DNA of 64,000 bases, from NCBI GenBank assembly GCA_963700285.1, contig CAVOXA010000001.1:224001-288000 (forward strand). The letters are read 5' to 3'. A program made the translations under genes and the position numbers. Source of the DNA: an uncultured Chloroflexia bacterium. GTDB taxonomy: Bacteria > Chloroflexota > Anaerolineae > JAAYZQ01. The notes under the pieces were generated by a model. It did no database searches, was not told the DNA's origin, and saw only the letters and a list, made by a program, of their open reading frames with translations. Positions 85-8,438 of the stretch are shown piece after piece (the first letter of the stretch is position 1; every line of letters begins with the position of its first letter).

Positions 85-1752
85 CTAGACCGTCTTTAGG
101 TATTGATGGACCAGGCTGATGGCGATGGCGCCCTGCCCCACGGCGGAGGCCACCCGTCGGATGGCGCCCTGCCGGACATCACCGGCGGCAAAGATGCCTG
201 GCACGCTGGTCTCCAGGATATATGGATCTCGCTTCAGCTTCCAGTTCTTGGGGCGGCGACCCGCCTGGATGAGATCGGGGCCGGTGAGTATAAAGCCAGC
301 GCTGTTTCGCTCCACGACACCCGCCACCAACTCGGAGTGAGGAACCGCGCCAATAAAGAGGAACATGGCTGCGGCCGGCAATGTTTGACTTTCACCAGAT
401 TCGTTATTCACGATGGTGATGGCTTTGAGCCGGTCTTCACCTAGCGCTTCAACCACCTCGGTCTGCAGCATCACCTCGATATTCTCCGTCGCTCTTATCT
501 GGTCGACGAGGTACTGAGACATGCCCTTTTCCAGATCGACTGGCACGTACCAGCATGGTGACCTTGCTCGCGTATTGGGAGAAGAACATTGCCCCCTGAC
601 CGGCCGAGTTGGCGCCGCCAACGACAAAGACCTGCTCGTCCCGGTAATGGGCCGCTTCGGTCAAAGCTGCTCCGTAGTAAACCCCGGCCCCGGTCAGGGC
701 CTTGACACCGGGCACATCAAGCATGCGGACCGAGACGCCGGTAGCAAGCACAAGTGCGCGGCAGGTCAACTCGGTCCCGTCACCAAACCGTAACGATGCG
801 ATAGGGGTCTTCTACCCGCACCTCGATCACCTCCCTGGCGGTCAGAATCTCGGCCCCCAGGCGCTGGGCCTGGGCAGTGGCCCGCCGGGCCAGATCGGCT
901 CCGCTCAAGCCATTTGGGAAAGCCCAAATAGTTCTCGATGCGTGAACTGGTACCCGCTTGTCCGCCGGTGGCCTCCTTGTCGATCATCAGCGTGCGCAAC
1001 CCCTCAGACGCGCCATACACGGCTGCCCCCAGGCCCGCCGGGCCGGCCCCGACGATGATCACGTCGTAGAAGGGCTCGGTCGCCTGCGTTTGCAGGCCGC
1101 ACTTTTCGGCCAAGGCCCGGTTGTCGGGCTCGACCAACACGTCCCCAGTCGGGAAAGAATACGACAGGGCAGCCGGGCCTGCTCGGGGGTGACTGCCTCG
1201 ACCAGCTCCCTGGCCTCTGCATCCTTTTCGATATCCAACCACTGATAGGGAATCCGGTTGCGGGCCAAAAAGTCCTTGACACGGTGGCAACTGGGCGACC
1301 AGAGCGTGCCTGCCACCCGAATGCCATCGTACGGCAGCGGCACAGTCGCCTGCCAGTCGCTCAACAGATCGTCCAAGACAGGATACAGGGTCTGCTCAGG
1401 CGGGATCCCAGGGCTTCATCAGGTAATGATCCAGGCCAATCGTGTTGATGCTTTCAATGGCGGCCTCGGTGTCGGCATAGGCGGTGAGCAATACCTTGCG
1501 GGTATCGGGATAGAGCTTGCGCGCCTCGGCCAGAAACTCGGTGCCGGTCATGACCGGCATGCGCTGGTCGGCCAGAAACAGGGCAATAGGCGCATTGCGG
1601 CGTTTGAGCTGGCGGACAGCCTCCAGCGCCTCCTGCCCCGAGGAAGCCTTCACGATGCGATAATCGCCGCGATAGTGCCGGCGCAGGTCGCGCTCGACTG
1701 CGTTGAGCACCTGCGGCTCGTCGTCAACGGTGAGTATAATGGGTTTGGCCAT
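85..1752 (-). CDS. Response regulator receiver - glutaredoxin-like - thioredoxin reductase-like FAD oxidoreductase fusion (several frameshifts)
   Basis: Consecutive ORF pieces: REC (ILTVDDEP...FLADQRMP...KPWDP), [26 protein letters not shown] motif [28 protein letters not shown] motif [11 protein letters not shown]-terminal [13 protein letters not shown]. Confidence 0.88.
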
Positions 1753-1775
1753 GACAGAATCTCCTAACTAACGTC

Positions 1776-3188
1776 CTACGACTCGCTCGGGGAGCAATCG
1801 AGAGGAATTCTCACCTCAAAACGGGTTCTTCCTGGCTGCGAGCTCACGTCAATCCTCCCCTGGTGTTTCTGTACAATGATATTGTGGCTGATATTTAGAC
1901 CCAGGCCGGTCCCTTTGCCGATTGGCTTGGTGGTGAAGAAGGGGTCAAACAGTTTCGGCAGTGCTTCCTCCGGAATGCCGGGGCCGTTGTCTTCAATTTC
2001 GACGATTACCCACTGGTCGTCGTATCGGCGTTCGCAAGGTGATCGTCACCATTACCGTTCATAGCATCGATCGCATTGTCAATGAGATTCGTCCAGACCT
2101 GGTTCAGCTCGCTGCCCCGGGCTTGGATGCGTGGTAGGTCGGGGGCATAATCGCGATGGACGGTAACGCCCGCTGAGCTTGCTGCGCAGGATGACCAGGG
2201 TACTGTCCAAACCTTCGTGGATGTCCACGGCCTGAATGGGCGCCTGATCCAGATAGGTGTATTCCTTGAGCGCTCTGACCAGTTCGGTGATACGCCCTGC
2301 GCCCTGGCCAATCTCCTCCAGCAGGCTGTACATGACGTACGTATAATTGAGCCAATCGATCACAGCCGGGAACTGGGTTGGTGTGAAACCCACCAGCAGT
2401 CCTGCCAGATCCTCTCGATCATAACCGAGATTCACCAGGGCCGGCGCCACTTCCCACGCGTCGGCGACGCCCAGCTCCTCCAGCCAGGTCTCCAGCTCAC
2501 TTTCATGGTCGCTGCGAGCAAGGGGATCCATCTGCGCGGGCTTCTTGGCTCTCTCTCGAACCGACTCGTCAAGCGCCAACAGCGATTCAAGCTGCGCATC
2601 GGTGAGATTCAACTCGCCCAATCTCAGATGGGTCTGCTGAAAATCCGAGACCGTTGCCTGCATCTGCGAGGCGCCGCGTTGGACTGCGGCCGCCGGGTTG
2701 TTCAGTTCGTGAGCCATTCCCGCACTGAGTTTGCCCAGCGTGGCCAGTTTTTCGCTCTGTCGCAGCATGACCTCCTGCTGCAGGTAGGCCTTTTCCAGGT
2801 CGCGAAGCTTTTTCTTCTGCAGGCTGGCGTTCAACCGTGCCTGCAGCAAAACGGGATTGAAAGGCTTGGGCAGGTAGTCCTCGGCGCCCATTTCGATGCA
2901 TCGCACCGCGCTGTCTATCTCATCCAGAGCAGAAATGACAATGACCGGGATGTCTCGCAGCTCGGGATCGCCCTTGACGATTTCCAGCACTTGGTAACCA
3001 TCCATCCCGGGCATGATGATGTCGAGAAGTACGACATCGTACGACCGGGCCTTGAGCATATCCAGCGCCTGTTGGCCATCTTCTGCCAGACTCACATCAT
3101 GGCCCTTGAGTTCGAGGCTGCGGGATAGCTTTATGCGGTTCATCCGGTTGTCATCGACGACCAGGATGTGACCTTGTTTCTCTGCCAT
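1776..3188 (-). CDS. Hybrid signalling protein: N-terminal REC + histidine kinase (frameshifted)
   Basis: ILVVDDN...LLDIIMPGMDG REC; H-box AGMAHELNNP; N-box ELNQVWTNLIDNAIDA; FDPFFTTKPIGKGTGLGL read on the minus strand at about 1900-1950; stop TAG at 1778-1776. Confidence 0.85.
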
Positions 3189-3220
3189 CGGACCTACTCC
3201 TTACAGAAACGGCGCAGCAG

Positions 3221-7732: not shown

Positions 7733-7736
7733 CGCC

Positions 7737-8309
7737 TCAGCGCCCCAACCCCTCGGCTATAACCGGCTCCACCGTGACCTTCAAGCTGTCAGCAAGGATG
7801 TCGAAGAAGGTGGCCATCGCAGCATTCACAGCGATGTCCACAATCTCCTCATCCGTGATGCCCAGGTCGCGCAGCCGCTCATAGTCCTCTGCGGCCACGT
7901 CCGCCGGACTGTGAGAAACCTTCAGGGCGAAGGCAATGATTGCCTGGATGCGCTTGGGCGACACATTGTCCAAGTCATTCACCAGCGCGCTCAACGTCTG
8001 GTCGTCAACCCCCAAAGTACGGCAGGAAAACTCGTTCTGGGCAGCGCAGTACTCGCAGTTCCGGGACTCGGCAACGACATAGAGGATCATGGCCTGCAGC
8101 GCCCTCGGCAGCGTTGTCTGCCGGACAAAGTTCCCATACAGTCCCCAGGCGGCTGCCCCAGAGGCCTGCGAGATCGCCAGCGTCGTCATCATGTTCGGTA
8201 CAAAGGGGATATTCAGGTCGCGCTTGATGTCAGCATAGATTTGGGCCACGCCCCCCGTGGCTTCTGCTTCCTCTACAGGCTGCAAATTGCTCTCAGGTAG
8301 ATATTTCAT
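7737..8309 (-). CDS. Carboxymuconolactone decarboxylase/AhpD-like (peroxidase-related) protein
   Basis: [11 protein letters not shown]xxC motif; [12 protein letters not shown] and [18 protein letters not shown] typical of CMD/AhpD-core proteins; RBS AAGGAG. Confidence 0.8.
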
Positions 8310-8388
8310 GGTGTGCTATTTGTCTCCTTTTTCTCTCTGTTCCTAAATCCATGGTGGCGTCCAGCGCGCCACCCACAGCCCCTACCAC

Positions 8389-8438
8389 TAATACTGCTTA
8401 TTAAAACTAATTATATCATAGAAAATTTACATTGTCAA
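8389..8438 (-). promoter_or_regulatory. Consensus sigma70-type promoter with a downstream palindromic operator candidate
   Basis: Minus strand TTGACA (8438-8433) - 17 bp - TATAAT (8415-8410) with extended TGn; TAATA-N5-TATTA palindrome at 8389-8403. Confidence 0.8.

Follow-up and report, generated by a model that had tools for sequence, protein, structure and literature searches.

What does a small AhpD-fold (CMD) protein do at the head of an operon that otherwise encodes a probable phosphorelay and a flavoprotein? The question is raised by the window, the whole 64,000-nucleotide stretch of DNA analysed here, on whose minus strand the genes for CMD, a hybrid kinase, a second kinase headed by a receiver domain (REC-HK) and a REC-Grx-TrxR-like protein follow one another, all co-directional. 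An earlier note, made from the sequence alone, had read them as a relay with CMD as redox input or as electron acceptor of the flavoenzyme. Our analysis retains the relay, moves the interest to the partner of CMD and discards the electron transfer.

An operon made of three modules

The four-gene operon is confirmed: the intergenic gaps of 4, 32 and 23 bp hold, as do the flanking promoter and terminator (Table 1), and Pfam, applied to the window pieces and to intact orthologues, recovers the domain architectures proposed for the four products, with no DNA-binding regulator among them. A promoter scan of the window returned three sites against 2.6 expected, that of the operon being the only perfect one; the hairpin at ~4–36 was not among the terminators listed by a terminator scan. 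The search for conserved neighbourhoods of CMD, HPt-ending kinase, REC-HK and REC-TrxR-like genes suggested in the earlier note was productive, with the same four genes in the same order at three further loci (L030, L126 and L157). The operon joins three independent modules, namely CMD with the first GAF domain (GAF1) of the hybrid kinase, the HPt kinase with its REC subtype, and the HELNNP kinase with a 'TrxB'-class regulator.

Table 1. Features of the operon (numbered from the first letter of the window).
Feature	Position	Strand	Remarks
Sigma-70-type promoter, TTGACA-17-TATAAT, extended −10 TG	8410..8438	-	12/12 matches; consensus match only
AhpD-fold (CMD) protein	7737..8309	-	190 aa, intact; C85-x-x-C88-x7-C96; A73 and N92 replace Glu and His
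GAF1 of hybrid kinase	7163..7732	-	KWVLDF motif (residues 41–46); predicted CMD docking site, from co-occurrence and complex model
Soluble hybrid kinase, GAF-PAS-GAF-GAF-GAF-HisKA-HATPase-REC-REC-HPt	3221..7732	-	~1,500 aa in orthologues; indels near 5087, 4990, 4418, 4256
Rec-controlled kinase, REC-DHp(HELNNP, helical insert)-HATPase	1776..3188	-	469–470 aa in orthologues; indels near 2173, 2046, 2029
REC-Grx-like-TrxR-like flavoprotein ('TrxB'-class response regulator)	85..1752	-	553 aa in orthologues; CxxC absent from both redox modules; 6 indels
Perfect inverted repeat, terminator-like	~4..36	.	GC hairpin, U4 tail, T-rich either side, −27.8 kcal/mol

CMD co-occurs with one GAF subtype

Among 401 genomes of the class Anaerolineae, nine had a strong CMD match (E<1e-17), and in eight of these the gene lies directly upstream of a GAF1 kinase, at a distance of −4 to 111 bp, the kinases themselves being of different types. 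None of 13 weaker CMD loci that were fetched had a GAF1 kinase alongside. In the reverse search, those nine genomes had GAF1 matches of at least 178 bits and no other genome exceeded 84, although the nine strong matches were in the training set of the profile and eight candidates were scored per genome. Scores of groups withheld from the profile were 84–93 and 112–118 against controls of at most 73, and 60–73 in one held-out group against controls of up to 62; the kinases linked to CMD in L064 and L107, when withheld, did not register as GAF1 (11–12 bits; hhalign probability 2.5).

As a held-out test we used 201 genomes from the phylum of the cyanobacterium G409. Strong CMD matches occurred in ten, with a GAF1 gene directly downstream of CMD in 10/10, compared with 0/4 for weaker matches. 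The cyanobacterial partners carry GAF and Guanylate_cyc domains in all seven cases scanned, that is, a class III cyclase output. In three further samples, each of 151 genomes and drawn around G413, G410 and G412, CMD matches were weak except for that of G410 itself; none of the 20 loci had a GAF1 neighbour, so that the module was absent from these samples as searched.

CMD is a stand-alone gene coupled to hybrid kinases, simple kinases and cyclases, and in the simplest partners (GAF-HK and GAF-cyclase) GAF1 is the sole input domain. The linkage is not universal: a 68% identical CMD in G013 is located away from the kinase operon, as is that of L127, and in the genome of L044 a GAF1-like kinase (99 bits; motif KQLLDF) is present without any match to the CMD subfamily. 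The KWxxDF motif occurs in 103 of 120 GAF1 homologues (it is missing in 17) and in none of 42 control GAF domains. The conserved partner of CMD is this first GAF domain, of the KWxLDF subtype, whatever output comes after it, a pairing that the earlier note had missed.

No CMD-kinase or CMD-cyclase fusion was found in the 24 long homologues scanned of 150 listed; the same scan turned up seven CMD-CMD-ECF-sigma fusions. Two other side observations are that 7 of 21 CMD homologues on contigs of at least 5 kb share the exact longest-contig size with a GAF1 kinase match, a weak correspondence judged by eye, and that CMD and GAF1 identities correlate with a kinship-dependent Spearman coefficient of 0.79.

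CMD keeps the AhpD fold and departs from its catalytic site

The structure model of CMD is an all-helical AhpD fold (pLDDT 95) that Foldseek aligned to 6K40 with a TM of 0.81, and the protein scores 80.6 bits against TIGR01926, whose curated cut-off is 81.8. An ESM Atlas search with CMD returned generic CMD clusters only. The fold (TM ~0.8) and CxxC (C85-E-Y-C88) that had been noted earlier are common to the AhpD/TIGR01926 proteins, such as the D. radiodurans AhpD-like 6K40 and Bmp8, as described in PMC8945050. What had been overlooked is a third conserved cysteine, which completes a CxxC-x7-C pattern kept in 106 of 107 homologues of the window's CMD clade and sets it apart from those proteins, as do replacement of the relay Glu and His, absence of CxxC from related partnered members and the tie of the gene to a GAF domain.

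The Glu/His proton relay (CxxCxxxH) is catalytic in AhpD and peroxidase-related proteins. Both residues were found in 17/17 unpartnered CMDs and neither in the window protein, and CxxCxxxH occurs in 15 of 107 of its close homologues. The partnered CMDs of cyanobacteria and of three Anaerolineae are devoid of CxxC, and the cyanobacterial ones keep the same GAF1 neighbour in 10/10 cases. The window CMD is probably a non-catalytic, AhpD-fold sensor subunit.

A predicted interface between CMD and GAF1

The complex model of CMD with GAF1 scored 0.61, compared with 0.28 for the best control, with runs agreeing in at least 65% of contacts and a partner pLDDT of at least 88; of 157 solved complexes 116 came up to the score mark, as did 2 of 215 mismatches, and these counts apply only roughly to this job. 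In the model, GAF K41–D45 lies against P68, L71, P118, R120 and G150 of CMD. P68 and P118 are present in 27/27 subfamily CMDs versus 3/17 and 1/17 unpartnered ones, respectively, a conservation that is inflated by kinship and in prolines that may be structural. The GAF relatives found in the PDB are generic, and no entry among them bears the name of an AhpD complex. On this modelling, the KWVLDF motif of GAF1 is the predicted docking site of CMD.

The reading towards which we lean is that CMD binds GAF1 in this predicted manner and sets a His-Asp-His relay that passes to the second kinase and on to a flavoprotein without cysteines for disulfide reduction. After docking on the motif with which it co-occurs, a change in CMD would alter kinase activity. 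The trigger would likely be oxidation or metal loading of the three cysteines in the window's clade, and may be a small ligand in the clades devoid of CxxC. The earlier proposal of CMD as redox input is to that extent upheld as regards input, whereas 'redox' is uncertain because of the partnered CMDs without CxxC. Counting against CMD as input, the three further GAFs and the PAS of the hybrid kinase could carry the signal.

These additional sensor domains, together with a docking patch that is conserved where the cysteines are not, would also suit a CMD whose binding to GAF1 is constitutively stabilising or has a fixed inhibitory effect, with signals received by the remaining GAF/PAS domains or by GAF1 itself. 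We regard this as unlikely, if the most serious competitor, since it does not sit well with simplest partners that have GAF1 as their only input domain, with the near-complete retention of three cysteines in the window's clade, or with G383, where three diverged CMD copies ahead of one kinase fit differing inputs. Less likely still, CMD would be an antioxidant enzyme or a passenger that is co-transcribed but takes no physical part in signalling, as the fold, the CxxC and the unlinked gene of G013 might suggest; the replaced Glu and His, the constant neighbour of the CxxC-less cyanobacterial proteins and a complex model that passes its controls argue against it.

The proposed phosphorelay

In the hybrid kinase Pfam finds four GAF domains, a weak PAS, HisKA, HATPase, two REC domains and HPt, so that the GAF/PAS hybrid kinase-HPt described earlier stands, with two REC domains in place of the one given. 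The protein starts with GAF at its N-terminus, has no membrane anchor and keeps the H-box His, REC Asp and HPt His in one chain. Its nearest NCBIfam matches, far below cut-offs, are unorthodox hybrid kinases of the BarA/ArcB/TorS type, which share the HisKA-HATPase-REC-HPt relay; unlike these, it is soluble, with four GAFs and two RECs, and its operon has no DNA-binding cognate regulator. By analogy with BarA/ArcB-type kinases, it would autophosphorylate and pass the phosphate from His to REC Asp to HPt His.

REC-HK, in which Pfam finds REC and HATPase, has a Rec-DHp-CA architecture with an upstream kinase present. As stated in the earlier note, its subtype is usually found with a cNMP sensor (39 of 80 flavoprotein loci), and where REC takes that place an HPt kinase accompanies it at 8/9 of the REC-HK loci among the 80. 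This REC subtype is preceded by an HPt gene in 11/14 loci, with differing outputs. Gene context and intact phospho-sites support the proposed order of the relay, whose logic is already known from LvrA-LvrB-LvrC. In Leptospira, according to PMC13269768, a Rec-DHp-CA kinase is phosphorylated by the kinase above it and in turn phosphorylates a non-DNA-binding regulator. The genes of the operon would form the same succession, likewise with an output that does not bind DNA, but this output is a flavoprotein rather than an anti-sigma factor, and its upstream kinase differs from LvrA, as there described, in ending in HPt and in its predicted trans-acting AhpD-fold partner. By this analogy, HPt would phosphorylate the REC of the second kinase, which would autophosphorylate from fresh ATP, as LvrB does, and, judging from the pairing of their genes, phosphorylate the REC-Grx-TrxR-like protein.

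A flavoprotein without redox cysteines

With Pfam matches to REC, Glutaredoxin and Pyr_redox_2, the flavoprotein combines a phosphorylatable REC and a TrxR-like domain with an adjoining kinase, as do S. coelicolor SCO7298 with kinase SCO7297, a 'TrxB'-class response regulator (PMC9739842), and a 'Mycobacterium-like combination' of a REC and TrxR-like protein with a kinase (PMC5847659). The accessible parts of these two sources describe the same fusion of REC to a TrxR-fold flavoprotein with a neighbouring kinase and make no mention of a Grx-like middle domain or of loss of both CxxC pairs; compared with the pairs known from them, the input of the window's partner kinase is REC in place of cNMP, and an HPt kinase stands above it in the proposed relay.

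Among 80 homologues, REC Asp, Thr and Lys are invariant and a HELNNP-subtype kinase is present at 66 loci. CxxC is absent from both the Grx and the TrxR parts in all 80, whereas REC-less paralogues keep both pairs in 8/9 cases (Grx form WCPDC). In the TrxR part YYGAAxxEA stands in place of CxxC, also by alignment to 7JYP and 4GCM; the Grx part usually reads WSxxSH, without CxxC or CxxS, and has a second-position Cys in 9/80. Of the motifs of low-Mr thioredoxin reductases (TIGR01292), the glycines of the FAD motif G-x-G-P-A-G are kept in 80/80 and the C-terminal GD in 76/80. Where those enzymes have the NADPH-binding GGGxxA and a basic motif, the homologues show a near-invariant GGANSAxQ and a single Arg (R401, in 79/80). 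Single-sequence structure prediction gave a pLDDT of 35, and no structural reading was drawn from it. The thioredoxin-reductase-type output of the earlier note is not borne out; since FAD-type and apparently NAD(P)H-type motifs are kept without redox cysteines, the protein likely acts as a regulated NAD(P)H oxidoreductase of a non-thiol kind or as a switch that binds nucleotides.

Nor does CMD appear to be its electron acceptor: a closed loop in which the phosphorylated flavoprotein reduces the CMD disulfide with NADPH would suit the shared operon (window, L030, L126 and L157), the proximity of the two genes in L064 and L107 and the one cysteine left in the window's Grx part (WSPSCH), but is very improbable given 80/80 homologues without CxxC, a Grx cysteine in so few of them, CMD near the flavoprotein at only 3/80 loci and the REC fusion in only 3/9 CMD-GAF1 genomes.

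Indels in the signalling genes

Compared with the intact orthologous operon L126, the last three genes contain 13 single-base indels (four in the hybrid kinase, three in REC-HK and six in the flavoprotein gene). That these genes are decaying pseudogenes, as 13 coding indels within 4.6 kb beside an intact CMD and an intact upstream oxidoreductase might indicate, is highly unlikely in view of 0 stop codons among 2,515 aligned codons, 671 synonymous versus 303 non-synonymous differences, 86–94% amino-acid identity to L126, an indel pair in the gene downstream of the operon as well, and contigs of close relatives without the window's indels at 1148, 1402, 2029, 2047, 4252 and 4418. The indels are likely assembly errors, short of proof because no sequencing run contained this genome: none of those compared reached half of its words (best share 0.14). 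The single RNA run gave scattered short contigs and no evidence of expression or habitat.

A probable AhpD-fold sensor module

A full-text literature search found no CMD/AhpD partner of GAF kinases or cyclases, although supplementary census tables may list more, and the CMD-GAF pair is likely an undescribed sensor module. PexR, a GAF regulator beside ahpCD (PMC12754779), differs in arrangement, as far as the accessible part of that source describes it.

More generally, we see about an even chance that evolution has turned AhpD-fold proteins into detachable sensor subunits, which dock on the KWxLDF GAF subtype and control phosphorelays in Anaerolineae and cAMP/cGMP cyclases in cyanobacteria, their cysteine site being retuned or lost for other signals, and that here such a subunit gates a cysteine-less TrxR-like enzyme. 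H-NOX and NosP are stand-alone trans-acting sensors of kinases and cyclases; CMD resembles them in that its small gene accompanies signalling enzymes of variable output domain, and differs from them in fold. Sestrin is a eukaryotic AhpD-fold ligand sensor, of which CMD, by analogy in the reuse of this fold for sensing, would be a bacterial counterpart; sestrins are not known to have GAF domains as binding partners.

Should the module prove real, signalling would be among the roles of a family that annotation treats as peroxidases, and cyanobacteria would offer a small testable system comprising a 180-aa CMD and a GAF-cyclase of ~400–450 aa, with a cAMP readout and a predicted interface. At the other end of the relay, the 'TrxB'-class regulator, widespread but unstudied in its biochemistry, takes interchangeable inputs (cNMP, REC-PAS-PAS or an HPt relay) and, unlike its intact Grx-TrxR paralogues, has lost the four redox cysteines altogether, which makes the label 'thioredoxin reductase' misleading.

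CMD is tied to the kinase's first GAF domain

In the 401-genome class sample, a CMD-only query (CMD being the operon's first product, an AhpD-like protein) found nine genomes at E<1e-17, and in eight of these the CMD gene precedes, at a distance of -4 to 111 bp, a gene for a kinase starting with a GAF domain that bears KW(V/L)(L/I)DF. The partner kinases are varied (hybrid HPt, GAF-GAF and GAF-only), and no such kinase adjoins any of the 13 weaker CMD loci retrieved, one of which has a response regulator next to it. A profile search with GAF1, the hybrid kinase's N-terminal domain, returned the same nine genomes, which are the profile's own training sequences, and no other above 84 bits; leave-group-out scoring placed two groups clear of controls and one marginally so, and did not separate the L064/L107 pair. 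No CMD occurs within 1.5 kb of control GAF loci (0/30), and the subfamily is absent from 5/5 possibly incomplete genomes, four having relay loci with membrane-type kinases and the fifth containing L044, whose GAF lacks the motif Trp.

The association was then tested on 201 genomes from the phylum of a cyanobacterium (G409), kept out of the earlier searches. Ten have CMD matches at E<1e-57, and in all ten a GAF1 gene (122–147 bits) comes next, -4 to 135 bp away, as against 0/4 for weaker matches. The seven scanned partners each combine GAF with a class III cyclase, and the partnered CMDs carry SxYA instead of CxYC. Since three Anaerolineae CMDs 64–71% identical to the cyanobacterial ones nevertheless precede kinases, not cyclases, the CMD–GAF1 pair is kept while its output differs. 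The module was not seen in genome samples around three other phyla.

CMD is not tied to the flavoprotein. It is present in just three of the best 80 flavoprotein loci, and among the 45 class-sample genomes, not counting G357, in which a full-length REC fusion reached E<1e-190 (three candidates scored per genome), only two have the CMD subfamily, besides the window's own genome.

Two loci, L064 and L107, one Acidobacteriota-type and one Ignavibacteria-type, have a single-Cys CMD beside the flavoprotein and HELNNP-type kinases whose N-terminal domain is divergent (KYIVDI/KFVADV); they may hold a remote form of the module. At L158 three diverged tandem CMD genes precede a single GAF1 kinase, with a REC protein, a MinD/ParA-like gene, a deacetylase-cNMP fusion and a FIST-domain gene further downstream.

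Predicted CMD–GAF1 complex

CMD is modelled with an AhpD fold (pLDDT 95; TM 0.81 to 6K40) and has an added third cysteine (CxxC-x7-C in 106/107 homologues). Modelling of two copies of GAF1(1-190) plus CMD gave a complex score of 0.61 (runs 0.61, 0.53, 0.62) versus 0.28 for the best control, the runs sharing at least 65% of contacts with partner pLDDT of at least 88; the score mark is reached by 116/157 solved complexes and 2/215 mismatches, counts only roughly valid for this job. W42 of KWVLDF is predicted to lie against CMD P68, L71, P118, R120 and I121. The motif, present in 103/120 GAF1 homologues and 0/42 control GAFs, and the conserved CMD residues (P68 and P118 in 27/27 subfamily CMDs versus 3/17 and 1/17 others) had been picked out before modelling. 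Model and conservation agree in supporting CMD binding to GAF1, not fully independently because the alignments fed to the model carry the same conservation.

Among other relatives, seven proteins of ~600 aa (P0301, P0307, P0328, P0342, P0364, P0373, P0379), one with a weak sestrin (PA26) match, fuse two AhpD-like domains before an ECF sigma factor, which again hints that the fold is put to regulatory use. In many canonical CMD relatives, L259, L260 and L270 among them, C-x-Y is immediately followed by an in-frame TGA that probably encodes selenocysteine, giving a CxxU motif; a GAF1 gene adjoins none of those examined.

Organization and integrity of the operon

As the earlier note described, the four genes are tightly packed on the minus strand (gaps of 4, 32 and 23 bp) between a consensus promoter and a terminator-like hairpin; Pfam confirmed the domains, and the phospho-sites are intact. 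Thirteen single-base indels break the last three genes relative to the intact metagenome operon L126. We read them as probable assembly errors because the 2,515 aligned codons contain no stop, synonymous exceed non-synonymous differences ~2:1 and several indels are absent from near relatives' contigs; the same observations make decay of these signalling genes in the host genome very improbable.

The conserved neighbourhood that the earlier note proposed to look for exists: the same genes in the same order recur in G007 (L030, where the contig end truncates the last gene), G142 (L157) and L126. L124 has CMD and then the start of the kinase gene, and G013 has the last three genes together, its CMD (68% identical) being encoded elsewhere. 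Most of the nearest loci come from Anaerolineae and other Chloroflexota. A molybdopterin oxidoreductase gene stops shortly before the promoter; L126 shares this arrangement, and L030 and L157 do not.

Coordinates of features in the window and of compared loci
Feature	Sequence	Position	Strand	Remark
Promoter, perfect sigma-70 consensus	Window	8438-8410	-	Consensus match
Hairpin past operon's end	Window	about 4-36		Inverted repeat
Molybdopterin oxidoreductase gene	Window	8552-10636	-	Intact
Protein with long acidic tail holding repeated segments	Window	12696-14507	+	By eye, resembles ribosomal protein S1
Single-Cys CMD locus	L064	4132-11662		
Single-Cys CMD locus	L107	3-5380		
Tandem CMD genes and GAF1 kinase	L158 (G383:C73)	10219-12292		
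Paralogous cassette	L024 (G000:C1, window's genome)	702652-706098		

Relay and output modules

Of the 80 best loci for the REC-Grx-TrxR flavoprotein (567 related candidates), 39 have an HELNNP-subtype kinase with a cNMP domain, the usual form according to the earlier note; this kinase is ~740 aa in 13 (three checked, all REC-PAS-PAS-HK), of other or truncated form in five and not found in 14. In nine it is REC-only, and eight of these loci also have an HPt hybrid kinase, matching the substitution noted in the window. Because the input varies in this way, kinase core and flavoprotein regulator form a fixed pair with exchangeable inputs. Recurrent neighbours in these loci (L044–L123) are large zinc-ribbon/cyclase/AAA/TPR or related genes (a cluster in 19), DUF3307/zf-UBP genes (a cluster in 15) and cNMP kinases ending in a CoA_binding_2 domain.

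The 80 aligned flavoproteins hardly vary in their REC Asp, Thr and Lys residues or in their FAD motifs, and CxxC is absent from all 80, the TrxR site reading YYGAAxxEA and the Grx site WSxxSH; it is also missing from 11 further REC fusions, some overlapping that set. By comparison, eight of nine REC-less paralogues fetched carry WCPDC plus CATC or CSTC, the ninth being a cNMP fusion without CxxC. Lacking CxxC, the flavoprotein, judged from its aligned sites, cannot run the standard dithiol mechanism, and the thioredoxin-reductase-type output of the earlier note is not supported. Nor is CMD supported as its electron acceptor: reduction of CMD by the flavoprotein with NADPH is highly unlikely, given also how rarely the two share a locus. 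The flavoprotein belongs to the 'TrxB' class of response regulators catalogued in the available portions of PMC5847659 and PMC9739842. SCO7298 is reported to be induced by sulfane sulfur (PMC9952706, available text), and its biochemistry was not found in the portions of the literature searched.

The second kinase's N-terminal REC is of a subtype found downstream of an HPt gene in 11/14 loci, where its outputs vary (kinase, cyclase-like domain or short coiled region). This context supports transfer from the hybrid kinase's HPt to this REC, the order put forward in the earlier note. In the available text of PMC13269768, LvrB is a worked example of a Rec-controlled kinase: LvrA phosphorylates its Rec, the catalytic domains are freed and LvrB phosphorylates LvrC. 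By analogy, the second kinase would begin a new phosphorylation from ATP and not hand on the same phosphate. A paralogous cassette in the window's genome (L024: kinase-REC-REC, stand-alone HPt and a cyclase-like protein of ~1,050 aa with the same REC subtype) makes cross-talk possible.

Role of CMD

A purely structural role for CMD is improbable. That it is a passenger antioxidant is less probable again, since CMD lacks the Glu and His present in 17/17 unpartnered family members compared, and CMDs with SxYA for CxYC still precede the GAF1 gene in 10/10 cyanobacterial cases. We somewhat favour CMD as a sensor subunit that would perceive a signal and control the relay. The literature searched (main texts, few subscription papers) gave no account of an AhpD-fold protein partnering GAF kinases or cyclases. 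Both the TrxB class and the logic of the relay are already known kinds, and the operon would be an accessory-sensor two-component system.
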